Below, one piece after another: positions 34,378 to 62,650 of a stretch of 64,000 nt of DNA. The notes beneath the pieces are model-generated. The model had not been told where the DNA came from and did no database searches. It saw nothing but the letters and a program-made list of their open reading frames with translations. This DNA comes from an uncultured Methanosarcinales archaeon (lineage in GTDB: Archaea > Nanobdellota > Nanobdellia > Woesearchaeales > GW2011-AR9), in contig CAZCGN010000001.1 of assembly GCA_964498285.1 (NCBI GenBank), positions 175,916-239,915 on the forward strand. Reading direction: 5' to 3'. Position numbers and translations under genes: made by a program. Each line of letters opens with the position of its first letter. Position 1 is the stretch's first letter.

Positions 34378-34454
34378 ACTAAAGAATTAGAGTATATAAA
34401 GATTTACGTATACTTAACGCCTAAAAATACATCATTTTCAAACAAGAAATAGCC

Positions 34455-35369
34455 TTACCAACTATCATCTTCGTGACGAGTATACACTTCAGTCTTATCT
34501 CCGACAACCATTGAATGCTCAAATTGGGCAATACGCTTACTTGAAACATCAACAAGAGGAGGGTAAGAAGTGATTATTTTTGAGCGTAACAACTCACGCA
34601 ATCCTAATTTTGCGGTCCCCGAACCAAACTTGCGCGTAAGCCAACGTGTCGTAAAGGGCAATCCATTCAAGCTTTTAACATATTCCAATATTTTTTTTGC
34701 GTGGGGCGTGCGAACTCCCCTATCTGCACTCTGCATAAAGATGGTTGCTGGCTGTTTTTCTTTGACAAGCCCATGACCCGATGTTATGAACGGCTCGATT
34801 GCAATTTGCCATCCTGCTTGCAGTTCAGTTTTATCTTTACTATTAAATGTAGGAATAGAAACACCACCATGTACCTTGTATTGATCTATAGTATGGCCTG
34901 AAAGATTCTTAATTGTTGTAAACCCTAACGCTTCTGCTTCGCTTAACTGCGCTTCTCCTAATTCCCAAAGCTGGCACCCCGGCTTCACAAGCTTAATTGC
35001 GGAGCGTAAAGCATTTTTGGATGCTTTGATCAAATCAGAATATTCAGTTGATTTCCCAACTTCTACTGTCTGAGCATTATCAGCAATCCATCCGTCAAGA
35101 TGAACGCCAATATCAATTTTAATAACATCACCTTCATGACTCATGCCAGTATCATCATCTTGTGGACAAAAATGTGCCGCTGCATCGTTCACTGCCATTT
35201 GCGCCCAGGCAACTTGCCCACCTAACTGTTGAATTCTCTCCTCACAAAAATCCATTACTGACAAAAACGAAGCGCCAGGAACTTTCAGTTTTGCAGCACC
35301 TTCCCTGCGAACTTGTGCTGCAACTTTTCCTGCCTTTCGTATTTTTTGAAGAGTTTCTGCATCAATCAT
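34455..35369 (-). CDS. map: Methionine aminopeptidase, type 2 (archaeal)
   Basis: M24 pita-bread fold with metal ligands (DIGVHLDGWIADNAQT, HGGVSIPTF, IAIEPF). 304 aa. Confidence 0.85.
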   Translation of the reverse strand: MIDAETLQKIRKAGKVAAQVRREGAAKLKVPGASFLSVMDFCEERIQQLGGQVAWAQMAVNDAAAHFCPQDDDTGMSHEGDVIKIDIGVHLDGWIADNAQTVEVGKSTEYSDLIKASKNALRSAIKLVKPGCQLWELGEAQLSEAEALGFTTIKNLSGHTIDQYKVHGGVSIPTFNSKDKTELQAGWQIAIEPFITSGHGLVKEKQPATIFMQSADRGVRTPHAKKILEYVKSLNGLPFTTRWLTRKFGSGTAKLGLRELLRSKIITSYPPLVDVSSKRIAQFEHSMVVGDKTEVYTRHEDDSW

Positions 35370-35441
35370 AGAATGAAAAGAGCAAAAAGAATGTTATAAA
35401 TGTTTGGATGATAGAAAGGAGGGATACCATTTTCAGAAAGT

Positions 35442-36122
35442 CTAAAGTTGTTCTATAAGTTCTAAAGTGATTTCATCAAAACCATGAACTATCTTGTCTG
35501 CAAATTCTAAATCACTAGTAGAATTTCTCCCATTCAAAATCCCTATGACCTTCATTCCTGCGCGTGTTGCTGCAAGAACACCTGAACTAGAATCTTCAAT
35601 GACAACACATTCTTCTGGTGAAACATCAAGCATCTTTGCTGTTTTAAGATATATGTCCGGATGTGGCTTTCCGTTCTTAATAGCTTCTCCGGCATGAATT
35701 ATTTGAAAATATTTTTTTAGATCTATTGTTCTGAGAATACTATCTACCCCCATAAAAGAAGAACTAGAAGCAAGGCCCAAGGTATAATTCTGAGTATACA
35801 AGAATTCAATTAATCTACAGGATCCAGATATGGCTGATACCTTCCCTTGAACGATTGAACCAACTAGATTTGCTTTGCGTCGAATCAGAGCATCCGAATC
35901 AGCCTGTACATTGAAATCCTGCAATACTAATGCTGTCGAAAGAGATCCATGTTTGCCACAAATCCGCGAGTAGTAATATTTCTCATCGATCTCTATTCCT
36001 AATTCACTATACGCTAGGATCCATGCTTTGCAATGAAATGGTTCAGAATCAACAAGAACACCATCCATATCGAATATTATTGTTTTTTTTGCGCCCATCT
36101 TTTGCCTTATTTCATCCCCCAC
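35442..36122 (-). CDS. HAD-IA family hydrolase / beta-phosphoglucomutase-like
   Basis: Motif I IIFDMDGVLVDSEP, with motif II/III spacing typical of the beta-PGM subfamily. Confidence 0.65.
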   Translation of the reverse strand: MGDEIRQKMGAKKTIIFDMDGVLVDSEPFHCKAWILAYSELGIEIDEKYYYSRICGKHGSLSTALVLQDFNVQADSDALIRRKANLVGSIVQGKVSAISGSCRLIEFLYTQNYTLGLASSSSFMGVDSILRTIDLKKYFQIIHAGEAIKNGKPHPDIYLKTAKMLDVSPEECVVIEDSSSGVLAATRAGMKVIGILNGRNSTSDLEFADKIVHGFDEITLELIEQL

Positions 36123-37261
36123 TAATTTTTTATGGGCAGATCTACCGTTTCAAGAACATGTCCTTTCGAAGAAACGTTATACGGAATTAATTTGAAGTGA
36201 GGAGTTAGTCTACTTCGTAGAGCAATAAGATCTTCTGGGTTCGCTGCATACACCATGACTGATCCGCCGCCGCCGCCCAAAGGAAAACAAACTGCGTTAT
36301 AGTTTTGACATTCTTCGTAGATTTTCCACGCAGCAGAGCTCATATAATCATTACATAATTGTGTACGAATCTTTCTATACTCTTCAATTGGTTCAGAAAG
36401 TGCTGTCCAATTCTTAGTTCGAATAGCTTCACGATACTTGTATGCTAAAATTGGTTTTTTGCTATGAAGAAGGAATCCTGCCTTACGTTGAAGTTCTTCA
36501 CGCCATTTTACGTTAACATCACTACTATGCCGCTGAATACAAAAGTATACGTCCATCCTTTTTTCGAGCTCAGCATAATCAGAAGGAGAAAGTAATTCCA
36601 TGCGAGTCGATGAACCATAAAAATTCTCTTCTCCAGGAATTCCAAAAGGATGCCAGATATAATCTCTTATGCCACCATACATGACACAACTCTGTTCTTG
36701 CGTTCCTGTAAGACTTATTCCAAAATCTTGTTCCATCATTGAGGCCATACCAATTAGTTGAGTTTTAGAAAATGGTCTCCCACTTAGCTCATTAGCAAGA
36801 AGACACACGCCAGTTGTTACCGCTGCACTTCCCCCAAGACCCGCAGATTTGAGGGCTGGATGCTTATTTTGAATAGTAAACTTCACGCCATCTAAATCAA
36901 ACACTTTCATTATTCTTAGTAACCAGTTTTCTTTAATAGGAGGAATAAGATCCTTATCAAAGGTATAACAAAAACCATAATCTACCGATTCCACACACAA
37001 CTTCCCACGCTCAATTGGTTGAGCAAAAATTTCAATCCCTACATCAATACAAATTCCAACTGTTCGAGGGAGGTTACGTGACCAGAAAGCACACTCCTCA
37101 CCCTCTTGAGTAGGCGATTTCCCAGATATACTTGAAAAGGTTTGCTGCCAAAGTCTAAGATCTAAGCTTGAACCGGGACCGTCTATGCGCAAAAAAACTG
37201 TAAGTTTTCGACGCTTTCCGGAAAGTTCCAATTCTTGTAGAATATCATGAGCATCCATCAA
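36122..37261 (-). CDS. GHMP-family sugar kinase
   Basis: GHMP motif KSAGLGGSAAVTTGVCLL and C-terminal glycine-rich PLGGGGGSVMVY. Stop overlaps the HAD start. Confidence 0.65.
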   Translation of the reverse strand: MMDAHDILQELELSGKRRKLTVFLRIDGPGSSLDLRLWQQTFSSISGKSPTQEGEECAFWSRNLPRTVGICIDVGIEIFAQPIERGKLCVESVDYGFCYTFDKDLIPPIKENWLLRIMKVFDLDGVKFTIQNKHPALKSAGLGGSAAVTTGVCLLANELSGRPFSKTQLIGMASMMEQDFGISLTGTQEQSCVMYGGIRDYIWHPFGIPGEENFYGSSTRMELLSPSDYAELEKRMDVYFCIQRHSSDVNVKWREELQRKAGFLLHSKKPILAYKYREAIRTKNWTALSEPIEEYRKIRTQLCNDYMSSAAWKIYEECQNYNAVCFPLGGGGGSVMVYAANPEDLIALRSRLTPHFKLIPYNVSSKGHVLETVDLPIKN

Positions 37262-37311
37262 GAGATCGGAGTACTGTTTGTTTTTAAACTATTATGAAAA
37301 ACTGATCGCAA

Positions 37312-37323
37312 TCTTTATAAATG
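37312..37323 (+). promoter_or_regulatory. Putative TATA box for 5S rRNA
   Basis: CTTTATAAATGG about 25 nt upstream of the 5S 5' end. Confidence 0.35.
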
Positions 37324-37341
37324 GGTGAAAAAGTTGCAATA

Positions 37342-37455
37342 CCGGACGGTCATAGGGATGTGGTTCACCTGTTCCCATTTCGAACACAGAAGTTAAACAC
37401 GTTTCCGTATTGCCTGGTACTATACTTATGTATGGGAAGAGTGGTAAGCTGTCCT
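37342..37455 (+). rRNA. rrf: 5S ribosomal RNA (stand-alone gene)
   Basis: GGACGGTCATAGGGATGTGGTTCACCTGTTCCCATTTCGAACACAGAAGTTAAACACG...TATGGGAAGAGTGGTAAGCTGTCC. Conserved CCCAUxxCGAACACxGAAGUUAA core. 5' GGACGGU pairs with 3' GCUGUCC. Followed by a T6 archaeal terminator. Confidence 0.75.
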
Positions 37456-37530
37456 TTTTTCTTACTTAACTTTCCATAAGGTTTTTAACTGTATCCTCAA
37501 GTATCTAGTAGCTTATTGAGGTGAAGTTAC

Positions 37531-38277
37531 GTGAAATGTATTATTCCTTGTGCTGGTTACGCGACAAGACTCTATCCTTTAACAAAAGATAGACCAAAAG
37601 CTCTTCTGGATGTGCAAGGAAAACCCATATTAAATCATATCATTGCAAAGATTCAACAAATTGATGAGATTGATGAGATTTTTATTGTAAGTAATGAAAG
37701 ATTCTATAAACACTTTGATAGTTGGCTTAAAACAATTGACTGTTCAATACCAATCAGACTTATTAATGACCATACGAACTCTAACGAAGATAGACTTGGT
37801 CAAATTGGAGACATTAATCTCGCGCTCAAAGAGATGAGTGAGCCCACAGACATGCTTTTTATTTCAGGGGATAACCTCTTCAACTTTTCACTCAAAAAGC
37901 TGCATACATTTTTCAAAGAAAACAACGAATTCACTAATGGATTATACGATACAAAATCCTTTGAAGTTGCCCGAAACCTAGGTGTTGCAACTATGGATAC
38001 AAGTGGCAAGATTATTTCGTTCGAAGAAAAGCCGCAAAACCCAAAATCGACCCTCGTTTCATTAGGGATTTATTTTTTGCCCAAAAAACATTTTCACCTG
38101 ATGCAAAAATATCTTGCTTTAGGAAATAAGCCAGACAAAATTGGATATTTTCTAGTATGGCTTCTAGAAAATTATTGTTTATATGGCTTTGCCTATGAAG
38201 AAAAATGGTTTGATATTGGTTGGCAAGCGTCACTTGAGGAAGCGAGACAAGAGTTTGTTTGGAAGGATGAAAAATGA
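37531..38277 (+). CDS. Sugar-1-phosphate nucleotidyltransferase
   Basis: N-terminal MKCIIPCAGYATRLYPLTKDRPKALL (G-x-G-T-R-L motif), GT-A-like NTP_transferase fold. 248 aa. Confidence 0.75.
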   Translation: MKCIIPCAGYATRLYPLTKDRPKALLDVQGKPILNHIIAKIQQIDEIDEIFIVSNERFYKHFDSWLKTIDCSIPIRLINDHTNSNEDRLGQIGDINLALKEMSEPTDMLFISGDNLFNFSLKKLHTFFKENNEFTNGLYDTKSFEVARNLGVATMDTSGKIISFEEKPQNPKSTLVSLGIYFLPKKHFHLMQKYLALGNKPDKIGYFLVWLLENYCLYGFAYEEKWFDIGWQASLEEARQEFVWKDEK

Positions 38278-39479
38278 AACTCAAAGAATTTGAAGCAAAG
38301 AAACTTATCCAAGAAGTTGGGATTCCGACAAGTAAAGGGATTCTCATTACTGCAGAAGATGAAGTGCCAACAATCGCTGGGCCAACAATTGCCAAAGTTC
38401 AAACCATTGCAAATGGGCGGGGAAAGGCTGGCGGCATAAAAGTTATTGAAACATCGAAAGATGCTCAAGAATTTGCACGCAATTTTCTAGGAACAAAATT
38501 TTTAGGTGAGAAAATCGCTGAAATTCTCTTTGATCAGAAAGTTGATATAGCACAAGAATTCTATTTAGGTCTTCTTTTTGATACAACAAAACGCATGCCA
38601 GTGTTGGTTTTCTCTACACAAGGTGGAGTTGACATTGAAACACTAAGTAAAGAGTCTCCTGAAAAGATTCTTACACTTGAGATTGATTATCTTCAGGAAA
38701 TTACTCCTGCCCAAGCAGGTCTTGTAACACAGAGTTTGGAAATTGAAGAAAATGCAAAAAAGCAGCTACAAGATATTTTTACAAAACTCTTTACAGCATT
38801 CAAACGATTTGATTGTAAGATGATTGAGGTTAATCCACTTGTTCTCACGCCAAGCAATGATCTCATTGCTGTTGATTGTGTCGCTGTGCTTGACGATGAT
38901 GCAAAATATCGAAGGGAGATTGAATTTCCTGAGCGAACCGATACCCGTAAGGCAACAGACAGGGAAATAAGAGCACATCAAATTGATAAGGATGATCACA
39001 GAGGCGTTGCAGGAAAAACATACCTTGACCTTGATGGAGATATTGCGATCTTAACAAGTGGGGGTGGCGCTTCTATGACTCTTATGGACGCACTAGTAGA
39101 ATGTGGGGGTAAACCAGCAAACTTTACAGAGTATAGTGGAAACCCACCAATGGAAAAGGTTGAAAAGCTCACACAAATTGTGCTAGAAAAAGAAAATCTT
39201 TCTGGCCTTTTAATTGGAGGTGTTATTGCTAATTTTACTGATATTGCTGCAACTTTGCAAGGCGTTGTAAACATTTTGAAAGTAGTTAAGCCAACATATC
39301 CTATTGTTATTCGGCGTGCTGGACCGAATGATGATGAAGCAAAAAAAATGCTCGAAGAAGCCAGACAAGATTTTGGATTAAACATCCATTATTTTGATGA
39401 AAAAGTCCCACTTACAAAAGCTGCAAAGATCATGGTAGAACTATCAAACAAGTATAAAACAGAAAAAGGTGTGATGTGA
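38274..39479 (+). CDS. ATP-grasp subunit of citryl-CoA/succinyl-CoA synthetase type (SucC/CcsA/AclB-like)
   Basis: MKLKEFEAKKLIQEVGIPTSKG N-terminus like SucC, ATP-grasp region and C-terminal CoA-ligase domain. Overlaps the next gene by 4 nt. Confidence 0.6.
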   Translation: MKLKEFEAKKLIQEVGIPTSKGILITAEDEVPTIAGPTIAKVQTIANGRGKAGGIKVIETSKDAQEFARNFLGTKFLGEKIAEILFDQKVDIAQEFYLGLLFDTTKRMPVLVFSTQGGVDIETLSKESPEKILTLEIDYLQEITPAQAGLVTQSLEIEENAKKQLQDIFTKLFTAFKRFDCKMIEVNPLVLTPSNDLIAVDCVAVLDDDAKYRREIEFPERTDTRKATDREIRAHQIDKDDHRGVAGKTYLDLDGDIAILTSGGGASMTLMDALVECGGKPANFTEYSGNPPMEKVEKLTQIVLEKENLSGLLIGGVIANFTDIAATLQGVVNILKVVKPTYPIVIRRAGPNDDEAKKMLEEARQDFGLNIHYFDEKVPLTKAAKIMVELSNKYKTEKGVM

Positions 39480-40402
39480 TGAGCATACTCATAGATGAAC
39501 GGACTACTTTCCTAATTCAAGGGATTACTGGAAAACAAGGTGCTAGGGCGTGCTCAGAGATGCTCAAAGCTGGATCAAAAGTTGTGTGCGGCGTCACACC
39601 AAAAAAAGGTGGGCAAGAAGTTGAAGGAGTACCTGTCTTTAACTCTATTCAAGAAGCACTTGATTCTGGTCACACACCAACATGTAGTGTCATACTTGTG
39701 CCACCAAGATTTGCAAAAGGTGCAATTAAAGAAGCAATTACCGCATCAATTCCACTCATTAATGTCGTAACCGAAAATATCCCCATTCATGATATGGCAG
39801 AATGTTTTGCACTTGCAAAAAAGCAAGGGATTAGAATAGTTGGCCCCACCTCGGCAGGCATTTATTCTGTAGGAAAGTCAAAGTGCGGCCCAATTGCTTC
39901 AGGCAAATCAAAAATCGCATTTAGCAAAGGAACAATTGGCGTTATTTCTCGTAGTGGAGGAATGTCTTCTGAAACATCGTTAGTACTTAGTCAAGCGAGA
40001 CTCGGTCAATCAACTGTTGTAAGTTGCGGGAGTGACGTCCTTATGGGAGAAGCGTTTAGGGAACTTGTTCCACTCTTCGAAGAAGATTCCAAAACGCAAG
40101 GCATTGCTATTTTTGGGGAGATTGGAGGAACATCTGAAGAAGATCTTGCGGCATACTTAATACAACGTAAAAAGGAAGGCAAACCATTTACAAAACCAAT
40201 TGTAGCATTCATTTCAGGAACATTTGCTGAAAACCTAGGGATTCAAAATGTCTCGTTGGGACACGCTGGCGCCATTATCGAAGGAAATAAGGGAACACGA
40301 GAAAACAAAGTAAAAACTTTAAAAGAGGCAGGCGTTATTATTGCTCAAGTGCATCATGAAGTAGGTAACCTTATGAGAAAAGCGCTTGAAGAAGAGAGAT
40401 AG
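39476..40402 (+). CDS. CoA-binding/phosphohistidine subunit (SucD/CcsB-like)
   Basis: FLIQGITGKQGARACSEMLKAGSKVVCGVTPKKGG matches the SucD N-terminus. Active-site loop SLGHAGAIIEGNKGT. Confidence 0.65.
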   Translation: MMSILIDERTTFLIQGITGKQGARACSEMLKAGSKVVCGVTPKKGGQEVEGVPVFNSIQEALDSGHTPTCSVILVPPRFAKGAIKEAITASIPLINVVTENIPIHDMAECFALAKKQGIRIVGPTSAGIYSVGKSKCGPIASGKSKIAFSKGTIGVISRSGGMSSETSLVLSQARLGQSTVVSCGSDVLMGEAFRELVPLFEEDSKTQGIAIFGEIGGTSEEDLAAYLIQRKKEGKPFTKPIVAFISGTFAENLGIQNVSLGHAGAIIEGNKGTRENKVKTLKEAGVIIAQVHHEVGNLMRKALEEER

Positions 40403-40411
40403 CAATTAAAA

Positions 40412-41137
40412 ATGGAATATAAAACAAGAATCTCAAAATTACAAGAAGAACATACAATTAGAGGAGAAAAACTTTCCACGCTTGTGCAAAAAAATTCCTT
40501 TTCATACAATATTTTCTTTTTAGTTCTAGGAAGAAAGCCATCTGAAGCTGAAGCAACATTATTTGATAAGATGCTCAGTTGCGTGATTGACCATGGCATG
40601 GGTACAACTTCTTCTCAAACCGCAAGGTTCATAGCATCAGGTGGGAACGAGGTTAATGTTGCTGTTGGTGGCGCTCTTTTAAGTATTGGTGATTACCATG
40701 GTGGAGCTATTAAAAATGCAATGTCACAGTTCTATGCGTGGGAAAAATCGCAAAATGTCCAAGAACTTGTTGAGGAGATGATCACGCACAAGAAAACACT
40801 TTTTGGATTTGGTCATAAACACTATAAGAAAGGAGATCCGAGAGTTGCTGCACTTAAGGAAGAAATGAAACGTTTAGGATTTGAATCACGTTTTAGTAAA
40901 TATCTTGACATAGTTGAGGCAGCATTTGTAAAAGTAAAAGGAAGAGCAATTCTTGCAAATATCGATGGAATGATTGCTGCGCTCCTATGTGATTTTGGAG
41001 CTGATCCCAAACTTGGCAAAGGTTTTTTCCTTATTGGAAGAACTCCTGGACTTGTCGCACAGACAATTGAAGAACTCACGCATGAAAAGCCCGTTCGAAG
41101 AGTCCCTGAAGGCCAAATAGAGTACACTGAAGAGTAA
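40412..41137 (+). CDS. Short citrate-synthase-like protein (citryl-CoA lyase-type)
   Basis: 241 aa with citrate synthase C-terminal catalytic region (GGALLSIGDYHGGA, FGFGHKHYKKGDPRV) but lacking the N-terminal half of full-length citrate synthase. Confidence 0.5.
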   Translation: MEYKTRISKLQEEHTIRGEKLSTLVQKNSFSYNIFFLVLGRKPSEAEATLFDKMLSCVIDHGMGTTSSQTARFIASGGNEVNVAVGGALLSIGDYHGGAIKNAMSQFYAWEKSQNVQELVEEMITHKKTLFGFGHKHYKKGDPRVAALKEEMKRLGFESRFSKYLDIVEAAFVKVKGRAILANIDGMIAALLCDFGADPKLGKGFFLIGRTPGLVAQTIEELTHEKPVRRVPEGQIEYTEE

Positions 41138-41143
41138 TTGAGC

Positions 41144-41704
41144 TCATTTTGGTTTAATCCCTCGTTCTCTTAAACGATCTCGTAATCTTTGTCTTGCACG
41201 AAAAAGTCGATTCATAGCAGTCCCTTTTGGAATTGCTAAATGCTCTTGGATTTCTGAGTATGTTAAACCATCATAATGCCTAAGCCTAATTATCTGAGCG
41301 TGCGCAGGCGAAATTGTATCGAGCGCTTCTTCAATTCCTTCTCTAATTTGTCTAGCCCAAACTGGATCTGAATCATAACTAGGAGTTACCCAATTCTCGT
41401 CGAAACTAACTCTTCTTCCAACCAGATCTCTTCTTTTCTTTCTAGACCAATAATCTCTCACAACATTAACAGTAACCACCGTTGCCCAAGCCTTAAACGG
41501 CTTATCAGGATGATACGTATGTATGCCTCTAGTTATTCGCAGTAATGCTTCTTGTAAAAGATCCTCAGCAGTTGCTTCATCCCCCCTCAATAATTTCAAG
41601 ACCAACATATATGCCGATGGTTGGTACGAACGAAGAAGAGAATCTAAAGCTGAACTATCTCCTGCTACTGCTAACCTACCAAGATCTACTTCATCACAAC
41701 CCAT
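41144..41704 (-). CDS. ECF-type sigma-70 family RNA polymerase sigma factor (bacterial-type)
   Basis: Region 2 (EDLLQEALLRITRGIHTYHPDKPFKAWATVVTVNVVRDYWSRKKRR) and region 4 (LDTISPAHAQIIRLRHYDGLTYSEIQEHLAIPKGTAMNRLFRARQRLR). Confidence 0.7.
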   Translation of the reverse strand: MGCDEVDLGRLAVAGDSSALDSLLRSYQPSAYMLVLKLLRGDEATAEDLLQEALLRITRGIHTYHPDKPFKAWATVVTVNVVRDYWSRKKRRDLVGRRVSFDENWVTPSYDSDPVWARQIREGIEEALDTISPAHAQIIRLRHYDGLTYSEIQEHLAIPKGTAMNRLFRARQRLRDRLRERGIKPK

Positions 41705-41816
41705 CCCTTTCTCAATTTAAGACATTTATAAAAGTGTTTTGACATCTTTAAGCTAAAATTGCATCTTGTTTCTCACTTCCACAATCTTTTTAAGCCAAAC
41801 TTTACGATAAAATCTC

Positions 41817-43118
41817 ATGAAAATTAGTCTTTTTGGAACAGGTTATGTTGGCCTTGTGACTGGAGCATGTTTAGCAAACCTTGGTCACCAAGTTCTTTGT
41901 TGTGATGTTGACGAGCAGAAAGTTACTCTACTTAAAGAGAACAAAATTCCATTCTATGAACCAGGCCTTAAAGATCTTGTCGAAAGAGGACAAAAAACAG
42001 GCCGCCTTATGTTCACAACAGAAAATAAAAAGGCAGTGGAATTCGCACAAGTCATCTTTAATTGTGTAGGAACCCCAGCTAACGAAGATGGTTCGGCTGA
42101 TTTACAGTATATTTTCTCAGTAGTTGAGACAGTTGCACAAAATGCCACACTTCCAACTATTCTTATCAACAAAAGTACTGTTCCACCTGGAACTGCAAGA
42201 CGTTGTCAAGAAAAAATATTGTTGACCAATAATCAAAGTTTAGTGAGAGTTGTCTCAAACCCAGAATTTCTTAAAGAAGGAAGTGCCGTACATGATTTTA
42301 CACATCCTGACAAGATTGTTGTTGGTGCAAAGGATGCAATCGCATATGAAATTCTTCACAAGGTCTATTTTGGATTAGAAAGACCCTACATGAAAATTCT
42401 TGAAACGAGCTGGGAGACTTCAGAGATGATAAAATATGCAAATAATGCGTTTCTCTCAACTAAGATCAGTTTCATCAATGAAATTGCAAACATAAGTGAT
42501 GTTGTTGGAGCAGACATAAAAGTGATTTCACAAGCCCTTGGAAAGGACTACCGAATCAGCCCTAAATTCCTTAATGCAGGTATTGGCTACGCTGGAAGTT
42601 GCTTTCCTAAAGATGTCCAAGCATTAGCATCTGTTGCACAAACTAAAGGATACACTGCAAAATTGCTTAAAGAAGTGCACGAACTTAACGAAAGGCAAAA
42701 ACGGCTACTTCTGGGAAAAATTTCTTTGCGTTTTCCAGATCTTACTGGAAAAACGATCTCTCTTTTAGGTCTTTCATTCAAACCAAAAACAAGTGACATC
42801 AGATCCTCAGCCTCTCTTATTCTTATCAAAGAATTGCTCGAAAAAGGAGCAAATATTAGAGTGCACGATCCTGTTGCTAATAATGAAGTTGAAAAAATCT
42901 TTGGAAAACAAGTGACATACTGTTCATCTCCAATAGAGTGCGCAAAGGAAAGCTCAGCTCTTGTACTTGTGACAGAGTGGGACGAATTCCGTAACGTTGA
43001 TTTTAACCAGATTGGAAGTGTAATGAGAAAGAGAGTACTGTTTGATGGAAGAAATATTTACGATCCAGCAACACTTAAGTCATTAGGTTTTGAGTATGTA
43101 GGTATTGGAAGACAATGA
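41817..43118 (+). CDS. ugd: UDP-glucose/nucleotide-sugar 6-dehydrogenase
   Basis: MKISLFGTGYVGLVTGACLA Rossmann N-terminus and catalytic Cys region GYAGSCFPKD. 433 aa. Confidence 0.8.
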   Translation: MKISLFGTGYVGLVTGACLANLGHQVLCCDVDEQKVTLLKENKIPFYEPGLKDLVERGQKTGRLMFTTENKKAVEFAQVIFNCVGTPANEDGSADLQYIFSVVETVAQNATLPTILINKSTVPPGTARRCQEKILLTNNQSLVRVVSNPEFLKEGSAVHDFTHPDKIVVGAKDAIAYEILHKVYFGLERPYMKILETSWETSEMIKYANNAFLSTKISFINEIANISDVVGADIKVISQALGKDYRISPKFLNAGIGYAGSCFPKDVQALASVAQTKGYTAKLLKEVHELNERQKRLLLGKISLRFPDLTGKTISLLGLSFKPKTSDIRSSASLILIKELLEKGANIRVHDPVANNEVEKIFGKQVTYCSSPIECAKESSALVLVTEWDEFRNVDFNQIGSVMRKRVLFDGRNIYDPATLKSLGFEYVGIGRQ

Positions 43119-43984
43119 AAAAACCAAAAGTCTCTATTGTAATTATTTTTGATAAAATTAGGAAAGAAAAACTATTGCGCCTTCTTAACTCCTTTGCAAA
43201 ACAGATAGACCAGTATGAGACAGAAATTCTCTTTATGCACGAATCAGATACACACAAAAACTTCCCTCCCCTCCCAGTAGATGTCAGATACATTATAATT
43301 CCAAAAAATAAAGGCATCCCATTTAATAGGAATAAAGGTATTGAACATGCACAAGGAGACATTATTGTTTTCATTGATGATGATTGTTGGGTCCAACACA
43401 CCTGGCTCTCATCTCTAATTGAGCCATTACAAAAAGATGAAACAATTCTTGCAGTTACAAGCGGAACAAAAATACCTAAATCAAACCTTGTGGGGGACTG
43501 CATTTCTGCTCTGGGCTTTCCAGGAGGTGGCTCTTTAGGTTTTACAAAGGTGTGGAAAGTTTCTGGAAAAGGTTTTACAAACCATCTTGCTGTTGGAAAT
43601 TGTGCCTTACGAAGAGAATTATTTAAGAAAGTTGGCAAGTTTGATGAAACTATGAAATCCGGCGCTGAGGATGCTGAACTTTCTTTTAGAATGGAGCAAG
43701 CTAACATTCCAATCAAGTTTGCAAGTGGCGCATATGCATTTCATGAAGCCCGAACAACCCTCTCTTCCTTTATTAAGTGGCAACTACGCAGGGGGAAGGC
43801 AAACTATCAGTTTAAACAAAAAATAGGAAAAGTAGGTGGGTTCATTAAGCTACGATTGTGGTCTGCCAAAAACATTTTTTTGCAGAATATGTTTAATTGG
43901 AGATTGCCACTCATTTTTTCCTTCTTGATCCTTAGCTTTGTACTTCAACAAGTTGGATATTTCCTAGAGAAGCGAAGACACTAA
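43115..43984 (+). CDS. Family 2 glycosyltransferase
   Basis: VSIVIIFDK N-terminus, DDDC (DxD) motif and C-terminal TM helix. Overlaps ugd by 4 nt. Confidence 0.7.
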   Translation: MKKPKVSIVIIFDKIRKEKLLRLLNSFAKQIDQYETEILFMHESDTHKNFPPLPVDVRYIIIPKNKGIPFNRNKGIEHAQGDIIVFIDDDCWVQHTWLSSLIEPLQKDETILAVTSGTKIPKSNLVGDCISALGFPGGGSLGFTKVWKVSGKGFTNHLAVGNCALRRELFKKVGKFDETMKSGAEDAELSFRMEQANIPIKFASGAYAFHEARTTLSSFIKWQLRRGKANYQFKQKIGKVGGFIKLRLWSAKNIFLQNMFNWRLPLIFSFLILSFVLQQVGYFLEKRRH

Positions 43985-44280
43985 CAATGAGGAAGTTATG
44001 CTTAAGAGATAAGATTGTAGACTTTGTTTATACTGGAGCATAAAGGTTTGCAACAGAAACACTTTCTCCTGCGATATACGAGAGAAGAAATAACAGGAGT
44101 AATATCACTAATGGAGTTATCCACCATGCTTTTCGTACCTTAAGAAAATTCCAGGCCTTTTTTAGAAAAGAGGGATTTGAGTTTTCTGCTGCTGACATGG
44201 GAGAAAAGGAAAGTGAAAATTATTTAAATCTTTCTTTTAAACAGATAGCTTTTTAAAGAAGATCTCCCGTTGTCTAATTC

Positions 44281-44517
44281 ATGGATAAGGTAGATTTCAT
44301 AGAGTTTTGTGCGGAATTTTGGCAAATAGATAGGTCTGAGATCAGAGATGAAATGCAGCTTGATGATACAAATTTACCAAATAACAGCTCAATTAGATTC
44401 TACCAGTTCATAGCCATGCTCGAAGCCAAATTTGGTCTTCATGTACAAAACATCAACTCAATATCGACTTTTGGGGATTTGTACTTAGATCTTACAAAAT
44501 CCAGAGAACATTTATAA
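44281..44517 (+). CDS. Small carrier-protein-like protein (possible acyl/peptidyl carrier)
   Basis: 78 aa, four-helix-bundle-like pattern with a candidate Ser in NNSSIRFYQFIAMLE. Immediately upstream of acpS. Confidence 0.35.
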   Translation: MDKVDFIEFCAEFWQIDRSEIRDEMQLDDTNLPNNSSIRFYQFIAMLEAKFGLHVQNINSISTFGDLYLDLTKSREHL

Positions 44518-44541
44518 TTCTTTGTAAGTTTTGGGAACTCA

Positions 44542-44874
44542 ATGGTCCAAGGCATAGGAGTGGATATAGAAGAGATTGCACGTTTTAAAGAATCATATAA
44601 AGATGAACATTTTATCAACTTAGTTTTTACCCCTCGTGAAATTGCGTACTGTCAGAAGAAGAAAGAACCGTATATTAGTTTTGCAGGAAAATTTTGTGCC
44701 AAAGAAGCCGTAATTAAAGCAAGCAGCAAACCCCTTAGTGTTAAACAAATAGAGATTATAAATGAAAAAGATGGACAACCCACTGTCTTTATTAACGGGA
44801 TTAAAGAACCCTTCATTTCCTGTAGTATTTCGCACACAAAAGATAACGCCATAGCCTTTGTCATTATGAAATAA
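44542..44874 (+). CDS. acpS: Holo-ACP synthase (4'-phosphopantetheinyl transferase, AcpS type)
   Basis: GIGVDIEEIARF, FTPREIAYC, AGKFCAKEAVIKA and ISHTKDNAIAFV match AcpS signature blocks. 110 aa. Confidence 0.75.
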   Translation: MVQGIGVDIEEIARFKESYKDEHFINLVFTPREIAYCQKKKEPYISFAGKFCAKEAVIKASSKPLSVKQIEIINEKDGQPTVFINGIKEPFISCSISHTKDNAIAFVIMK

Positions 44875-44876
44875 AA

Positions 44877-45506
44877 ATGGAAGAGACGATTAGCAAGAAA
44901 CATAATTATTCCCAAGGTACCACCAGTTCTATTACAGTTCAGATTAAAAGTAGTAATATCCAAAAGGTAATTGAAAAGTTTAGAGAAGAAGAAAAACTGA
45001 ACATTAGTCCTGGAGATATAATTACCCATGCTGCTGGTCAGGCTTTACTAGATTTTCCTGAGTTTAATTCATCCTTTGCTAAGAAAGGAGAGCCATATCC
45101 TGATGTAAACATAGGCTATGCCATTAACCTTGGGCACGGACCAAAAACAGTTGTCATAAAAAGTGTTGCAAACAAATCTATTATTGAAGTTGCAAGTGAA
45201 GTTAAAAAATTGGCAGTAAAATATATTCGAAAAGAACTCTCAGAGGAAGATATGAATGGAGGGACTTTTTCTATATCGAACCTGTCTTCATTTGGAGTCC
45301 ACACAATGAACACCCCTACATTTGAGGATCAGTCCGCGTTACTTTCAATAAATTCAGAATATGACTCTATTGAATTCATTAAAGAAAGACCAATTCCAAT
45401 AAAACTATTTAACCTCTCACTCTCTTTTGATTTCCGTGTAGCAAACTGCCAACAAGCAGCTCAATTTTTAAAAAAAATTAAACATTTGCTTGAGAAATGT
45501 GACTAA
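44877..45506 (+). CDS. CAT / 2-oxoacid-dehydrogenase-E2-like acyltransferase fold protein
   Basis: C-terminal LSLSFDFRVANCQQAAQFL resembles the E2 DHRxxDG catalytic block, with Phe in place of the catalytic His. Confidence 0.35.
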   Translation: MEETISKKHNYSQGTTSSITVQIKSSNIQKVIEKFREEEKLNISPGDIITHAAGQALLDFPEFNSSFAKKGEPYPDVNIGYAINLGHGPKTVVIKSVANKSIIEVASEVKKLAVKYIRKELSEEDMNGGTFSISNLSSFGVHTMNTPTFEDQSALLSINSEYDSIEFIKERPIPIKLFNLSLSFDFRVANCQQAAQFLKKIKHLLEKCD

Positions 45507-45946
45507 CTTTTCAATTCCATAGTTTTATCTTCGAGAACGGTTACTTTGGCATTTCCATCAACAACAACTTCACCATTACAAATGATTTCTGTTTCCATAA
45601 TAATAACTCTTACACTATCAATCTTATCTTTAACTTTTCCCCGTATTAAAAGGGTAGAATTCGGATAGACTGGTTTTTTGAAATTTAGCTGTTGTGTTAA
45701 ACAAAGACATTTCTCACCTGGGCAAAGCATTCCAAAAAGAGTTGAAAAGTAGCTTGAAAGATGCAATCCGTGTGCAATAATTCCGTTAAACTGGGTCTTT
45801 TTGGCAAATGCTTCATCACAATGAAGGGGTTGCTTATTTCCCGTCAAAGAAATAAAATCATCAATACTCTCTTTTGTAAGAAGCTGAGTAAACTCAAACA
45901 CAGAACCAATTTTAATTTCCTCATAACTAAAACAGTTTGCATCCAT
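45503..45946 (-). CDS. MaoC-like hot-dog fold dehydratase
   Basis: 147 aa. Hot-dog core with GKVKDKIDSVRVIIMETEIICNGEVVVDG pattern. Confidence 0.55.
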   Translation of the reverse strand: MDANCFSYEEIKIGSVFEFTQLLTKESIDDFISLTGNKQPLHCDEAFAKKTQFNGIIAHGLHLSSYFSTLFGMLCPGEKCLCLTQQLNFKKPVYPNSTLLIRGKVKDKIDSVRVIIMETEIICNGEVVVDGNAKVTVLEDKTMELKS

Positions 45947-45949
45947 CTT

Positions 45950-46438
45950 TTATGTATTTTCACCTAAAGCCCCATGTTTTTTGAGAGCTTCTTTGATTTG
46001 GCCATATGTTCTAAGTTGCATAACTTCCTGTGTTGTAAACCTAACATTGAATGCTTTTTCTAAATCAGAAAAGAGCATCATACCTGCAAATGAATCATTT
46101 GATGTGAGCAAATCGCTGTTCAGACCTGCTTTAAGATCCTTTGTATCGATATTAAGATTTTTTTGAAGTATCTCCTGAAGTTTCTCTTCAGGAGTTTCCT
46201 TTTTCAACACTATCTGCTTACTTTGAAGAATTGTAATAATTTGTTCAACGTTGTTGAGTCGTAATATCTCTTCTTCTCTAAACGTAATGAGAAAAGATTT
46301 TTCAAGTTCAGCAATGATCTTAAAGTGGGCAAGAGAATCCCATCCTTCAACATTAAGCATTGAAGAATCAAGAGTGATTTTTGCTTGATCCAGACCTAAT
46401 GCTTGAGCCACAACTTCTTTAACTTTCTCATCAATCAT
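45950..46438 (-). CDS. Tandem (didomain) acyl carrier protein
   Basis: First domain has canonical LNVEGWDSLAHFKIIAELEKSF (DSL phosphopantetheine site). Second domain has TSNDSFAGMMLFSDLEKAF. Confidence 0.55.
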   Translation of the reverse strand: MIDEKVKEVVAQALGLDQAKITLDSSMLNVEGWDSLAHFKIIAELEKSFLITFREEEILRLNNVEQIITILQSKQIVLKKETPEEKLQEILQKNLNIDTKDLKAGLNSDLLTSNDSFAGMMLFSDLEKAFNVRFTTQEVMQLRTYGQIKEALKKHGALGENT

Positions 46439-46468
46439 TTTTTGCTCCCTCTAGCCAAATGGAGTTAT

Positions 46469-49276
46469 TTACTTTATATATTTGTCTGTATAATATGCTC
46501 GCAATTTTCGATAGAGTATCTTTTTTGTCGGCCCTTTGGGGATATTATCTAAATCTTCAAGTGTATTAATTATGATTATTTCTTTTGGTTGCTTGTATCC
46601 TGCAAGCTTTCCTGACAAAAAATCTATTAACTCTTCTTTTGTTGTAGAGCCATTTTCATGCAGCTTCACAAAAGCGCAAACTTCTTCTCCAAGTAGAGGG
46701 TGAGGAATCCCAATCACTGCGCATTCAGAAACACTATTATGTTTGAACAAAACATTCTCAACCTCACTTGGATAAATGTTCTCTCCCCCCTTAATGATCA
46801 AGAAATCTTTACGTGTCTTAAAGTAGATATAACCATCTTCATCTTTGTATCCAAAATCTCCACTACGAAACCAGCCATCTCTAAAATTCTGTTTGTTCTT
46901 CTCTTCAAGGTCAAAATATTCGTTCACAACATTCAAGCCGCGAATACAAATCTCTCCTTCTTGATGAGGTTGGAGTTCACAATCATTTTCATCACGTATA
47001 GTAATTCTATTAATAGGAAATTCTCTTCCAACTGATCCTTCTTTCCGCTTTTCTTTTGGATAATTGTTAAAACAAGCAAACGATGTTGTTTCTGTAAGAC
47101 CATAGCCTTCAAAAATTGGAACACTGAATCTTTCTTCAAATTTTCGTTGCACTTCTCTTGTAAGTACTTGCCCCCCACAGATTATCCCCCGCATTGATGT
47201 GTCTTTCCGCTCAATTGGCATACTAAGTAATATTGATAAAATTGAGGGCATAACACTTGTCCAGTTAACATTGTACTTATCAACAACAGACCAAAATGCA
47301 AGTAAGCTTGCCTTTCCTTGGATAATTACTGTTGACCCACCTGAATAAAGAGGTGTGAGAAGAGTTATCACCTGCCCATTGTTGTGAAATAACGGAAGAA
47401 TACAAAGTGTTCTTGTGGTTTTAGTAAAATGAAACCACTCAGAGATCACTTTGGCATCAGAAAGAAGGTTAAGATGAGTTAGCACTGCTCCTTTAGGATT
47501 TCCAGTGGTACCCGAAGTATAAATAATAACTGCTTCATCAGTAAGGTTTACCTTTGGAAAAGTGGATCTCACCTCCAAGATAGAATCATCCAAATCCCTC
47601 TCTTTAAGATTGCGAATCTCTGTTGCAGGACAAATCTCGACTTCTGATGAGACTTGACCTTTCAGTTCCTCAATTTTGGTTTTCAGTGATGAATCATAGA
47701 AAACTGTCTTGGATCTTGATTGGGTGATAATATAAGCCATTTCAGGCGCAGAAAGAGCTGGGTTAATTGGAACAACAGTTATGCCTAAGCGCAAAGCTGC
47801 AAAGTAAAGTAAAACAAATTCAGGAGAGTTTGGAATTATCAGGTTTATTCGCTCACCTTTGGAAACCTTTTTCTCTAAAAGATAATTTGCAACTTTTAGC
47901 AACATGTAATCAAACTCTTGATATGAAAATGATTCATTCATTCCTGGGAAAAAGGCAAAGGTTTTGTCTGGATCTTCTTGCACTTTTGCAGAAAATAGTT
48001 CATACACATTGTTATACTCAATTGGAAATGGCTCTCCTAACTTTTGGTGATCAAAAAGTTGCTCATCTTCCACAAGTATTGATGCTTCTTGTAGGGCAGG
48101 TTTTTCTAAGTATTGTTCTACAACATCCATTATATCTTGTAGAGTAGTCATCTTTAGAGAATCTCGAAACTTTATCTCGATACCAAACTTTTTTTCTACT
48201 GCAGAGAGGAGTTGAATATGTTTTAAAGAGTCCCACTCAAGATATTTTTCCATTGAGATATTCTCTTCATCTAATGAAAGATTGAGTACTTGCTCAAACA
48301 CTTCCTTAAGCCCTTCTCTAATTAAACTGTTAACCGAACTTTGTTTTGTGTTTGTATTAAAATGGCCTATAATATTTTGTGCCGCAAGTTGTGCCATATT
48401 ATGCCTGCATTCCTTTGTTGCAGTTCCAATGTGAGGAATTACAATACAATTCGGAAGATTACAAATAGGATGATTACCAGAAATTGGCTCAGGATCTGTA
48501 ACATCTAAACATGCCCCACGAACTTGCCCACTTTTTAAGGCAGCATAAAGATGATCAGTGTTTACGACTCCTCCACGAGCCATGTTAAGAAGGATAGGTT
48601 TTCTCGCCATTTTATTAAATGCAATTTGATCAATCAAGCCTTTTGTTTCTTCAGATAAAGGAACGTGTAAAGAAATATAATCTGAATGCGCAAGTAAGTA
48701 GTCCAGATCAACTTGTTTTACAGGAGGATCTTCTGAATCTACTTTTGAACGGTTGTGATATATTACATTAAGATCAAACCCCCGAGCTCGCTGGGCGACA
48801 GCTTTCCCTATTTTTCCAAAACCAATTATCCCAAAAGTCTTTCCACTCAACTCTTCTCCTAAGAACAGTTCTGGATCCCATGATTTCCAATTATCACTCC
48901 TGACAAATTCCTGTGCCAAAGATACTTGCCGTATTAGTTGCAAGAGAAGAGCAAAAGTCATATCCGCAGTGCTATTAGTTACAACGTTCGGCGTGTTATA
49001 AATAAAGATCCCTCTCTTTTTTGCATATTCCAAATCAATGTTGTCAAGACCTACTGCAAAATTTGAGATTACTTGAAGGTTGTTTTTAAGATCAAGAATC
49101 TCGGGAGTAAACTTTTCAGTAACTGAAGAGAGAATGCCATCATAACTGGAGACAACTTCTTTAAGTTTTTCTACAGAAAGAGGAGCATTATCATAACTTT
49201 CGTCCACGTGAAAATGTGCAGAGAGAATCTCTCTTGCAACCTTAGGCAACCTTCTTGTGATAAATATCTTTTTCAT
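46469..49276 (-). CDS. Tridomain enzyme: D-isomer 2-hydroxyacid dehydrogenase - carrier protein - AMP-binding adenylation domain
   Basis: The N-terminal ~310 aa form a D-isomer 2-hydroxyacid dehydrogenase domain (NAD-binding GKTFGIIGFGKIGKAV, catalytic His/Glu/Arg pattern). The middle ~70 aa are a carrier domain (EKYLEWDSLKHIQLLSAVEKKFG). The C-terminal ~530 aa are an adenylation domain (IIYTSGTTGNPKGAVLTH, YGLTETT, YFKTRKDFLIIKGGENIYPSEVE). 935 aa. Confidence 0.7.
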   Translation of the reverse strand: MKKIFITRRLPKVAREILSAHFHVDESYDNAPLSVEKLKEVVSSYDGILSSVTEKFTPEILDLKNNLQVISNFAVGLDNIDLEYAKKRGIFIYNTPNVVTNSTADMTFALLLQLIRQVSLAQEFVRSDNWKSWDPELFLGEELSGKTFGIIGFGKIGKAVAQRARGFDLNVIYHNRSKVDSEDPPVKQVDLDYLLAHSDYISLHVPLSEETKGLIDQIAFNKMARKPILLNMARGGVVNTDHLYAALKSGQVRGACLDVTDPEPISGNHPICNLPNCIVIPHIGTATKECRHNMAQLAAQNIIGHFNTNTKQSSVNSLIREGLKEVFEQVLNLSLDEENISMEKYLEWDSLKHIQLLSAVEKKFGIEIKFRDSLKMTTLQDIMDVVEQYLEKPALQEASILVEDEQLFDHQKLGEPFPIEYNNVYELFSAKVQEDPDKTFAFFPGMNESFSYQEFDYMLLKVANYLLEKKVSKGERINLIIPNSPEFVLLYFAALRLGITVVPINPALSAPEMAYIITQSRSKTVFYDSSLKTKIEELKGQVSSEVEICPATEIRNLKERDLDDSILEVRSTFPKVNLTDEAVIIYTSGTTGNPKGAVLTHLNLLSDAKVISEWFHFTKTTRTLCILPLFHNNGQVITLLTPLYSGGSTVIIQGKASLLAFWSVVDKYNVNWTSVMPSILSILLSMPIERKDTSMRGIICGGQVLTREVQRKFEERFSVPIFEGYGLTETTSFACFNNYPKEKRKEGSVGREFPINRITIRDENDCELQPHQEGEICIRGLNVVNEYFDLEEKNKQNFRDGWFRSGDFGYKDEDGYIYFKTRKDFLIIKGGENIYPSEVENVLFKHNSVSECAVIGIPHPLLGEEVCAFVKLHENGSTTKEELIDFLSGKLAGYKQPKEIIIINTLEDLDNIPKGPTKKILYRKLRAYYTDKYIK

Positions 49277-49303
49277 ATTTTTATATGCATTAGTCCTTCT
49301 TGT

Positions 49304-50611
49304 TTAGAGATCATTTGTGTAGTTAACTTCTGAAGATCTCTCCATTGAGGAAGTATTTGGAAGCGTTTCTTTTTTTCTTCTCAAATATTCGCCGACTTTC
49401 TTCATCCCTTGTTCTATAACTTCCAAATTATTGACTAATGGTCCAAAAGACACTCGTACTGCACCTGATAGAGTCCTACCAAAACCCCAACCTGGTACAA
49501 AAAGAACTGCAGATTCCTTAAGCACTTCTTCAACAAATTTTGCCCCATCATCACCAACTTTAATACAAGTATATAAACCACCTTTAGGTGTGAGTGCTGG
49601 AAGACCGATATATTCTTTGATTGCTTTAACTGTATGTTCGCCTGCTCGCCTATATTGTTCACTAATTTGTTTTGTATACGATCTTAAAGTGTTATTTTCT
49701 ATTGCATCGTTGAGATACTTTGTTAAAGCCATCTGATGAAGATTGTCGGGACAAAGAATGGATGACCCTTGAATTGATTCTAATGCGTGAACAATTTCAC
49801 TACTTGCCTCAATCCATCCTAACCGTCTTCCAAGACTTCTGCTCCACTTGGAGTTTGAATGAATTGTTAAGAAATGATCATCTGGTTTCCAGGAAAAGTA
49901 TTCTGGAAGATTTTCATCAAAGACCATATCCTTATACGCAAAATCAACAATGAGAAAACTTCCAACCTCCTTTACTGCTCTGAGGGCTGATGCAACAAAA
50001 TCATCTGACAAGACTTGTGAGGTTGGATTATCAGGCGAGACTAATAACACTACTTTTGGTCGTTCCTGAAGAATAAAATCATAAAACTCTTGGCATCGTC
50101 GATCCGCAACGTACTCCCATCGCTCAGTATCAATAACAGGAAAGCGTACAACTTCAACGTCTAAAGCAGTCGTTACCTGCGAAGGAAGATTACAATAACT
50201 TGGATCAAGAAGCGCCACTTTATCACCAGGGTTTAACAATACTTGCATAAGGTTAAAGGTAAGTTGAGTTGAACTCGCACCAATTGCTATATGCTGTGGC
50301 TCAAGCCCCAGGGTGCCATACAAATGGCTTTCATACCGAATAATGGCCTTTTTGCACTCAGGACTTCCAAGCGTTGCAGAATAACCACCGGACATGTGAA
50401 AACTTGCCTCATTTGAAACTATTTCTTGGTATGCTTTTTGTAATAATGATGGAGCTTTGTGATTAACCCACCCCCCGGCAAATGAGATAACTTCTGATGC
50501 TTCAACCCCTATTTTTTTAAAGTACGCTGGATCTGCATAGTCCATAATTTGCCTAATTGGAGAGATTGTTCTCCGAAAACTAAGTGATTTATCTGATAAC
50601 ATTGGTTTCAT
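49304..50611 (-). CDS. Class I/II PLP-dependent aminotransferase
   Basis: SNSKWSRSLGRRLGW (PLP-lysine region) and fold-type-I spacing. 435 aa. Confidence 0.7.
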   Translation of the reverse strand: MKPMLSDKSLSFRRTISPIRQIMDYADPAYFKKIGVEASEVISFAGGWVNHKAPSLLQKAYQEIVSNEASFHMSGGYSATLGSPECKKAIIRYESHLYGTLGLEPQHIAIGASSTQLTFNLMQVLLNPGDKVALLDPSYCNLPSQVTTALDVEVVRFPVIDTERWEYVADRRCQEFYDFILQERPKVVLLVSPDNPTSQVLSDDFVASALRAVKEVGSFLIVDFAYKDMVFDENLPEYFSWKPDDHFLTIHSNSKWSRSLGRRLGWIEASSEIVHALESIQGSSILCPDNLHQMALTKYLNDAIENNTLRSYTKQISEQYRRAGEHTVKAIKEYIGLPALTPKGGLYTCIKVGDDGAKFVEEVLKESAVLFVPGWGFGRTLSGAVRVSFGPLVNNLEVIEQGMKKVGEYLRRKKETLPNTSSMERSSEVNYTNDL

Positions 50612-50649
50612 TCTAGTATACCTCTTGTCGTGATTATTTTGTGATCATT

Positions 50650-62648: not shown

Positions 62649-62650
62649 TC

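Follow-up and report, generated by a model that had tools for sequence, protein, structure and literature searches.

The locus and its sigma factor gene

In a stretch of 64,000 nucleotides of the archaeal contig CAZCGN010000001.1 (assembly GCA_964498285.1, positions 175,916 to 239,915; hereafter the window) a gene was analysed which encodes a sigma-70-family protein of the extracytoplasmic function (ECF) type. It lies on the minus strand between the genes of a citryl-CoA lyase (CCL) and a UDP-glucose 6-dehydrogenase (UDPGDH). Archaeal RNA polymerase (RNAP) initiates transcription with TBP, TFB and TFE, and sigma factors are not used (PMC7289017). Sigma factors are among the clearest markers that divide bacterial from archaeal and eukaryotic transcription. 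Where a sigma gene is intact and apparently expressed in an archaeon, one has to ask which function its product can have in the absence of the matching polymerase. The features of the locus are summarized in Table 1.

Table 1. Features of the sigma gene locus, of the remaining window and of one related locus. Positions refer to the window unless stated otherwise.
Feature	Position	Strand	Basis
Complete ECF (group 4) sigma-70-family coding sequence, 186 aa, ATG to TGA	41144..41704	-	ORF list, Pfam, TIGR02937, PDB, AlphaFold2, Foldseek
Sigma2 domain, residues 23-92; DLLQE (region 2.2), FKAW...N...D (region 2.3/2.4)	41429..41638	-	Pfam Sigma70_r2
Sigma2-sigma4 linker, residues 99-109, disordered, no region 3	41378..41410	-	AlphaFold2 pLDDT <50; no Sigma70_r3 match
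Sigma4 domain, residues 123-175, helix-turn-helix, recognition helix GTAMNRLFRARQRL	41180..41338	-	Pfam Sigma70_r4_2 / r4
BRE/TATA-like promoter element AAAACACTTTTATAAATG of the sigma gene; TATA core starts 28 nt upstream of ATG	41723..41740	-	Sequence, window position weight matrix
Left flank: CCL, convergent with the sigma gene, 6-bp gap	40412..41137	+	NCBIfam NF004869, 218.7 bits
Right flank: UDPGDH, divergent from the sigma gene, 112-bp spacer, TATA-like core at -29	41817..43118	+	TIGR03026, 437 bits
Lineage-specific inserted segment: sigma gene and divergent intergenic region (~680 bp)	41138..41816	.	Synteny with L140, L142
NTP-transferase/CCS-beta/CCS-alpha/CCL string, CCL last	37531-41137	+ for CCL	Gene order
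Stand-alone 5S rRNA gene	37342-37457	+	Rfam, 60 bits
Cluster with ACPS 4'-phosphopantetheinyl transferase, 2-oxoacid_dh-type acyltransferase, MaoC dehydratase, 162-aa PP-binding carrier, aminotransferase, SDR/ketoreductase and a 935-aa fusion of 2-hydroxyacid dehydrogenase and AMP-binding ligase	44542-51402
Second Woesearchaeota-annotated ECF-like sigma factor, P0241, 351 aa	10001-11056 of contig L143 (JGI Ga0376277_0005495 / NCBI MFA6887939.1)

A first-pass annotation, made from the nucleotide sequence alone, had recognized sigma-70 region 2 and region 4 blocks in this open reading frame (ORF), and had considered that profile searches might leave only a region-4-like helix-turn-helix (HTH) without region 2. 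Both blocks were recovered by Pfam, TIGR02937, the PDB search, AlphaFold2 and Foldseek, and the peptides quoted for them are present in the protein. Sigma70_r2 is matched with 55.9 bits against a cutoff of 24 (E 3.7e-15), therefore the ORF codes for more than a lone region-4 HTH. The Sigma70_r4_2 and Sigma70_r4 models match at E 1.1e-11, the full-length Sigma70_ECF model of Pfam matches as well, and the NCBIfam model TIGR02937 (sigma70-ECF) covers the protein end to end (model positions 2-165 of 165, 100.6 bits against a cutoff of 42.9). None of the equivalog or subfamily models of NCBIfam scores above its own cutoff, so that the protein belongs to no named ECF subgroup. Its architecture is minimal, with region 2 and region 4 matches only in 186 residues, as in the ECF class of about 20 kDa without regions 1.1 and 3.

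Searched at full length against the PDB, the protein retrieves only ECF sigma factors (SigE, SigL and SigH of M. tuberculosis, sigmaE of E. coli and SigW of B. subtilis). With these structurally solved bacterial proteins it shares the length class, the order sigma2-linker-sigma4 and the motifs, at 23-30% full-length identity and with domains that superpose at 1.4-2 A. With a 42-sequence alignment as input, AlphaFold2 gave a model with a mean pLDDT of 90.3, which is composed of a helical sigma2 (residues 5-98), the disordered linker and a helical sigma4 (114-180). All top Foldseek matches of this model in the PDB are ECF sigma factors. Superposed as a single domain, sigma2 fits region 2 of sigmaE with a root-mean-square deviation of 1.7-2.0 A, and for sigma4 and region 4 of sigmaE bound to -35 DNA (2h27) the value is 1.4 A.

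At 36 of the 45 conserved columns of the family the protein has a matching residue; for 138 relatives the mean is 36.3 +/- 2.8. The 18 invariant or near-invariant columns reported for the alignment, each given with the residue of the query, include D48, Q51, W73, R166, R171 and L174. The conserved positions A46, D48, Q51, E52, W73, N80 and D84 of region 2 are kept, and with them the motif DLLQE (region 2.2), the residues W73, N80 and D84 of region 2.3/2.4 and the recognition helix RLFRAR of region 4.2. These results confirm that the ORF encodes a complete ECF sigma factor.

Archaeal surroundings and insertion into a conserved gene string

The genes to the left of the sigma gene include those of a thermosome (28816-30435, 718 bits), a family-B DNA polymerase (PolB), Rad50, HerA and a type II methionyl aminopeptidase (MetAP). 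A winged-helix protein of the HTH_45 type and a protease resembling presenilin/SPP are encoded there as well. The closest relative of the thermosome (74% identity) is found on a JGI contig of 294 kb which shares the gene order of the window only up to MetAP. The following relatives are 60-64% identical, and the best of those with a name (59-62%) are labelled Nanoarchaeota or Candidatus Woesearchaeota, which indicates that the host is a Woesearchaeota-type member of the DPANN archaea. The best homologs of the CCL are 54-67% identical, and the named ones are mostly assigned to Nanoarchaeota, Woesearchaeota or DPANN. The archaeal surroundings assumed in the first-pass annotation are thus borne out by the thermosome, PolB, Rad50, HerA and type II MetAP genes, by the DPANN homologs of thermosome and CCL and by synteny with DPANN genomes. 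To the right of the sigma gene lie the genes of UDPGDH, a family 2 glycosyltransferase (GT2), an acyl-carrier-protein cluster, an MBOAT protein, a phosphoenolpyruvate (PEP) mutase and a phosphonate ABC transporter, none of which has a Pfam label specific to archaea. Chimerism was therefore examined directly, as described below.

In two syntenic genomes of related DPANN archaea (L140, GCA_964343575.1, with a contig of 485 kb, and L142, GCA_964343555.1) the genes of NTP-transferase, CCS-beta, CCS-alpha, CCL, UDPGDH, epimerase and more surface-glycan proteins, in L142 also GT2, are encoded on one strand. The UDPGDH gene follows that of the CCL after 170 bp in L140 and after 51 bp in L142, and neither genome has a sigma gene at this place. 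The sole difference of the window to this string is the extra minus-strand gene together with its 112-bp upstream spacer. Since CCL and UDPGDH adjoin each other without a sigma gene in both genomes, the segment is a lineage-specific single-gene insertion. The string that received the sigma gene is conserved in DPANN archaea, and the gene lies on the strand opposite to it.

Related metagenome contigs connect NTP-transferase, UDPGDH and GT2 to orthologs of HisRS and MetAP, and UDPGDH orthologs of 55-63% identity are located in syntenic DPANN contigs. No sigma gene was found nearby in other relatives with a different gene order either. In an HMM scan of 80 UDPGDH loci the +/-6 kb around the eight closest orthologs proved free of sigma ORFs; sigma ORFs are present in only two distant loci (47-48% UDPGDH identity). 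Scars of the insertion could not be identified, as there is neither a target-site duplication nor terminal inverted repeats at the segment, and no integrase or transposase gene nearby.

Promoter and codon usage

Upstream of the sigma start codon the minus strand reads AAAACACTTTTATAAATGtcttaaattgagaaagggATG, with an A-rich stretch resembling a BRE (TFB recognition element) that precedes the TATA core at -28. This arrangement is common in the window. In 24 of the 38 genes with an upstream spacer of at least 40 nt, a core of TATA type (TTTAWA, TTTTAA or CTTAWA) starts between -36 and -26 relative to the start codon, and its positions peak sharply at -31 to -28. About 11% would be expected from the intergenic density of the motif. 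Such cores are found on both sides of the 5S gene (15/26 left, 8/11 right), and the consensus of the leaderless TATA-like promoters across the window is CAAAAATATTTATAAACC. Scored with a weight matrix derived from the 23 other sites, the TATA box of the sigma gene reaches 9.96 bits and ranks 17th of the 38 promoters; within an 11-nt positional window such a score is obtained by chance with P ~0.003.

No bacterial sigma-70-type promoter was found upstream of the sigma gene. The generic ECF pattern GAAC-N15-18-CGTM occurs five times in the window with 4.8 occurrences expected, although the specificity of this sigma factor itself may differ. The host-type BRE/TATA element at -28 makes it most likely that the gene is transcribed by archaeal RNAP with TBP and TFB, and that its mRNA is leaderless.

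The codon usage of the sigma gene is indistinguishable from that of its neighbours (z = -0.51 for the synonymous-codon log-likelihood relative to the window), and its GC content at third codon positions is 0.241, compared to 0.285 +/- 0.040 in the window. The first-pass annotation had described the codon composition as only mildly different, which agrees with these values.

The spacer between the sigma and UDPGDH genes also contains a 14-nt direct repeat, TTTAAGCYAAAMTT, at 41747-41760 and 41789-41802 of the plus strand, the two copies lying 42 nt apart. It occurs nowhere else in the window and is statistically not compelling. The second copy overlaps the TATA box of UDPGDH, and the repeat might serve as operator or have arisen by duplication of a promoter element.

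Search for an anti-sigma factor

Many ECF sigma factor genes are typically, but not universally, adjoined by an anti-sigma gene. Here the neighbours are the convergent CCL and the divergent UDPGDH genes. Of the predicted ORFs in the window, the 59 with at least 90 aa were considered. The Pfam and NCBIfam matches of 57 of them include no anti-sigma domain, and the other two (44542-44874 and 45503-45946) were covered by precomputed Pfam labels. The partner search proposed in the first-pass annotation has thereby been made for ORFs of this size in the 64-kb window, with a negative result.

Relatives of the sigma protein and comparison with known systems

A word-indexed search of 5.8 billion proteins returned best relatives of 34-37% identity, and the sigma protein forms a singleton cluster. 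With HMMER 79,783 relatives were found among 1.84 billion representatives, of which the query alone scores below E 1e-30. The best non-self relative reaches 94 bits, and the best 150 of the 79,783 form a flat list of 79-94 bits and 27-41% identity. A search of genome contigs revealed 51 loci, all of them bacterial ECF genes, with at most 36% identity in the best tblastn segment and 30-32% for full-length matches. The genes around the three best homologs of the word-indexed search are clearly bacterial (Omp85/POTRA, a sigma-54 activator, and a NusG-L11-L1-L10-L7/L12 operon), and in two of the three bacterial homologs examined a zf-HC2 anti-sigma gene follows immediately downstream. Judged by these searches, with no protein among the 1.84 billion representatives above 41% identity, the sigma protein is an orphan in sequence, yet fully typical of its family.

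Among the four best HMMER matches is P0241 (Table 1), which is annotated at NCBI as sigma-70 family sigma factor of 'Candidatus Woesearchaeota archaeon' and is 33% identical over the whole sigma protein. It differs from the 186-aa protein of the window in its 351 residues, with a C-terminal extension. As there is no close relative anywhere and the identity to P0241 is only 33%, the sigma gene of the window may be a separate acquisition. The P0241 gene is found on a contig of 35 kb with genes for TrmB, HTH_10, Translin and TGT, and no anti-sigma gene adjoins it. A 1599-aa PEP-utilizer/PPDK-like gene immediately precedes it, and the genes for TGT and the HTH_10 regulator lie on its downstream side. 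The C-terminal extension holds a second, weak region-4-like stretch.

In Castelle et al. (2021, Front Microbiol, PMC8204110) sigma-70-class genes (fam00359) are described as 'particularly prevalent in Woesearchaeota'; there mis-binning was excluded, no anti-sigma factor was found and the mechanism was left open. The gene described here agrees with these in the Woesearchaeota-type genome, in not being a product of mis-binning and in the lack of an identifiable anti-sigma factor. Its insertion site and native leaderless promoter have no counterpart in that passage of the paper. As sigma genes of Woesearchaeota are already published, the present case does not change the picture; it is a new, very divergent case of a phenomenon that is functionally unexplained. 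What the present analysis contributes is the precise place of insertion in comparison with syntenic genomes, a leaderless promoter native to the host, and a sequence that is orphan yet family-typical. With a single-gene insertion, a known gene order before and after it, a leaderless promoter, no anti-sigma factor and a confident structural model, the gene is an unusually clean test object, which suits heterologous expression, binding assays with archaeal and bacterial RNAP, and DAP-seq.

From bacterial ECF sigma factors the protein differs in its host, whose transcription machinery is archaeal, in the lack of an adjoining anti-sigma gene, in contrast to the zf-HC2 genes beside two of the three bacterial relatives examined, and probably in its promoter, which appears to be of the BRE/TATA type instead of an autoregulated ECF promoter. 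The reclassification of the ECF family (PMC7826278) makes no mention of archaea. LuxR- and sigma-70-region-4-like HTH proteins of archaea (PMC5413776) are comparable only in the proposed mode, namely a bacterial-type HTH acting on archaeal promoters; they have no region 2, whereas the present protein has a complete sigma2 domain. A study from 2025 described rpoS-like auxiliary genes on predicted DPANN viruses (PMC12647753), which likewise tie sigma-family genes to DPANN biology. In contrast to the present ECF gene, which is chromosomal, without viral context and without a relative in IMG/VR, those are annotated as group-2-like and encoded on viral genomes.

Possible role in the archaeal host

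That the gene encodes an ECF sigma factor, was acquired by horizontal gene transfer and is not an artefact we regard, taken together, as nearly certain. The complete reading, a bacterial group-4 ECF sigma factor which was acquired horizontally by a DPANN archaeon, stands under a host-type promoter and acts more likely as DNA-binding regulator than as initiation factor, is held with moderate confidence. Within it the role as a sequence-specific DNA-binding regulator, which is drawn from analogy, is the tentative part and can only be put forward as a plausible proposal. Most gene-specific regulators of archaea are HTH proteins of the bacterial type. Because archaea lack the bacterial core RNA polymerase, the protein is most likely no initiation factor.

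The segment of ~680 bp entered the gap between CCL and UDPGDH with the sigma gene alone, in opposite orientation. According to the proposal the gene would be expressed as a leaderless mRNA from its host-type BRE/TATA box. The HTH of sigma4, with or without sigma2, might then bind archaeal promoters in the way other bacterial-type HTH proteins do. A small regulon would be expected, possibly including the divergent surface-glycan genes, and UDPGDH and GT2 would be the obvious first candidate targets. As there is no anti-sigma factor, the activity of the protein would be set at the level of its own transcription.

Several points weigh against this reading. The role as regulator is an inference, and a singleton gene without ortholog offers no basis for a dN/dS test of purifying selection. 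The motif DLLQE is fully kept, and pure DNA binding would not obviously need it; in solved ECF holoenzymes this region-2.2 motif contacts the clamp helices of the beta-prime subunit. A TATA-like box might also arise by chance where the spacer is rich in AT (P ~0.003 to 0.1, according to the null model chosen), and native codon usage would equally be expected if the gene had come fairly recently from a low-GC donor that has not been sampled. Furthermore, no genes for bacterial RNAP subunits are present in the 64-kb window, an absence that covers this window only.

Alternatively, the gene could be a non-functional passenger, that is a neutral acquisition which has not yet decayed and has no effect in the archaeon. 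Many bacterial genes have been taken up by DPANN genomes, and the sigma gene is lineage-specific, absent from the syntenic relatives, a singleton in clustering and without partner anti-sigma factor or known partner polymerase. We nevertheless consider a passenger unlikely. The ORF is intact, conservation at the family positions is typical (36 of 45), the fold prediction is confident and a host-type promoter is found at the correct distance; useless DNA is usually lost from reduced DPANN genomes, and sigma-70 genes recur across Woesearchaeota.

Instead of acting through DNA alone, the protein could be linked to an RNAP, either by docking on the clamp coiled-coil of the archaeal enzyme, where it would modulate initiation, or by delivery to a bacterial partner, whose polymerase it would redirect like phage sigma factors. 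The archaeal clamp coiled-coil corresponds structurally to the clamp helices of beta-prime, and the core-binding region-2.2 motif as well as the elements for -10 and -35 recognition are all kept. Castelle et al. reportedly consider an episymbiotic association with bacteria possible for some Woesearchaeota, and the rpoS-like genes of DPANN viruses would also fit a role of this kind. It is entirely speculative and rather improbable, as there is no evidence of any sigma factor binding archaeal RNAP, generic ECF promoter patterns occur in the window at chance level, and the sigma protein has neither a signal peptide nor a secretion context. Slightly less probable again is the more specific claim that the core-binding surface is functional, with the protein as auxiliary or alternative factor on archaeal RNAP or as effector that reprograms the RNAP of a bacterial partner of this putative episymbiont. 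If true, a sigma factor docking on archaeal RNAP would represent a hybrid bacterial-archaeal mechanism of initiation.

Origin of the gene

The preferred reading, horizontal acquisition of a bacterial ECF gene, leaves the donor to be considered. The sequence comparisons point to an unsampled or long-diverged bacterial ECF lineage as the probable source. A co-transfer with glycosyltransferase genes was considered and rejected, since the neighbouring GT2 is unlike the glycosyltransferase beside the bacterial homolog P0004 (E 0.67).

Sigma factors are often encoded by phages, PHROG 1740 matches the protein at 96 bits and DPANN viruses carry the rpoS-like genes mentioned above; hence the segment might be the remnant of an integrated virus or mobile element. 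A phage or virus origin was rejected after searches of PHROGs, INPHARED and IMG/VR had yielded generic sigma relatives or none. Phage relatives are at most 31% identical, IMG/VR contains no relative, the insert consists of a single gene, and besides the scars already mentioned also capsid genes and att-like repeats are missing nearby. A viral remnant is accordingly very improbable.

Integrity of the contig

The first-pass annotation had also allowed for a chimeric or contaminated contig, which might be betrayed by a break in GC skew at the gene boundaries. The exact sigma protein is present on an NCBI contig of 780 kb and in the Logan assemblies of two separate runs (SRR8146440 and SRR8146441). 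The Logan contig of SRR8146441 (86 kb) runs unbroken through the genes of type II MetAP, 5S rRNA, the citryl-CoA enzymes, the sigma factor and the glycan proteins, and that of SRR8146440 (83 kb) begins inside the 5S gene at 37367. Over 34296-51704 both assemblies are identical to the window at every position, and for the SRR8146440 contig this also holds over 52651-64000. Both junctions of the sigma segment are reproduced in the two assemblies with zero mismatches to the window. A change of sign in the GC skew is indeed seen in the 41-42 kb bin, and it only follows the switch of the coding strand. The contig is archaeal and not chimeric, and contamination is rejected: the junctions are kept in two assemblies, the flanks are collinear with DPANN genomes and the TATA architecture is the same on both sides.

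An assembly or binning artefact, in which a bacterial fragment was joined to an archaeal contig, would fit the otherwise exclusively bacterial occurrence of sigma factors and the breaks of Logan contigs a few kb left of the gene (34296, and 37367 inside the 5S rRNA), but is practically negligible in view of the continuous, mismatch-free SRR8146441 contig from MetAP to the glycan genes, the DPANN collinearity on both sides together with the DPANN matches of CCL, the leaderless TATA architecture to the left and right, the native codon usage of an inserted piece of only ~680 bp, and the lack of any bacterial protein more than 41% identical to the sigma protein.

Other features of the window

The 5S rRNA gene is flanked by a GHMP-kinase gene on one side and by the NTP-transferase/CCS string on the other. 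The break of the SRR8146440 contig inside it suggests a second 5S copy or strain variation. The Logan assemblies of both runs stop at the same base, 34296, inside an ORF of 689 aa (32308-34377, minus strand), for which no Pfam or NCBIfam match was obtained. The closest relative has an ORF of 672 aa at this position.

The region 44542-51402 represents a bacterial-style acyl-carrier-protein cluster in an archaeal genome. By its gene content it is reminiscent of the bacterial fatty-acid genes noted in Woesearchaeota by Castelle et al.

Further to the right (59385-63451) the gene of a fusion of PEP mutase and cytidylyltransferase is followed by those of a phosphonate-binding ABC transporter (binding protein, ATPase and permease). 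These genes adjoin MBOAT, CDP-alcohol phosphatidyltransferase and flippase genes. The gene content of 59385-63451 suggests surface glycans or lipids that are possibly decorated with phosphonate.

At the left end of the window, 7181-8481 and 9228-11185 (minus strand) hold two adjoining HIT-domain genes and two RNase HII paralogs with an ORF of 130 aa between them. In one of these paralogs the N-terminus is extended by about 90 aa.

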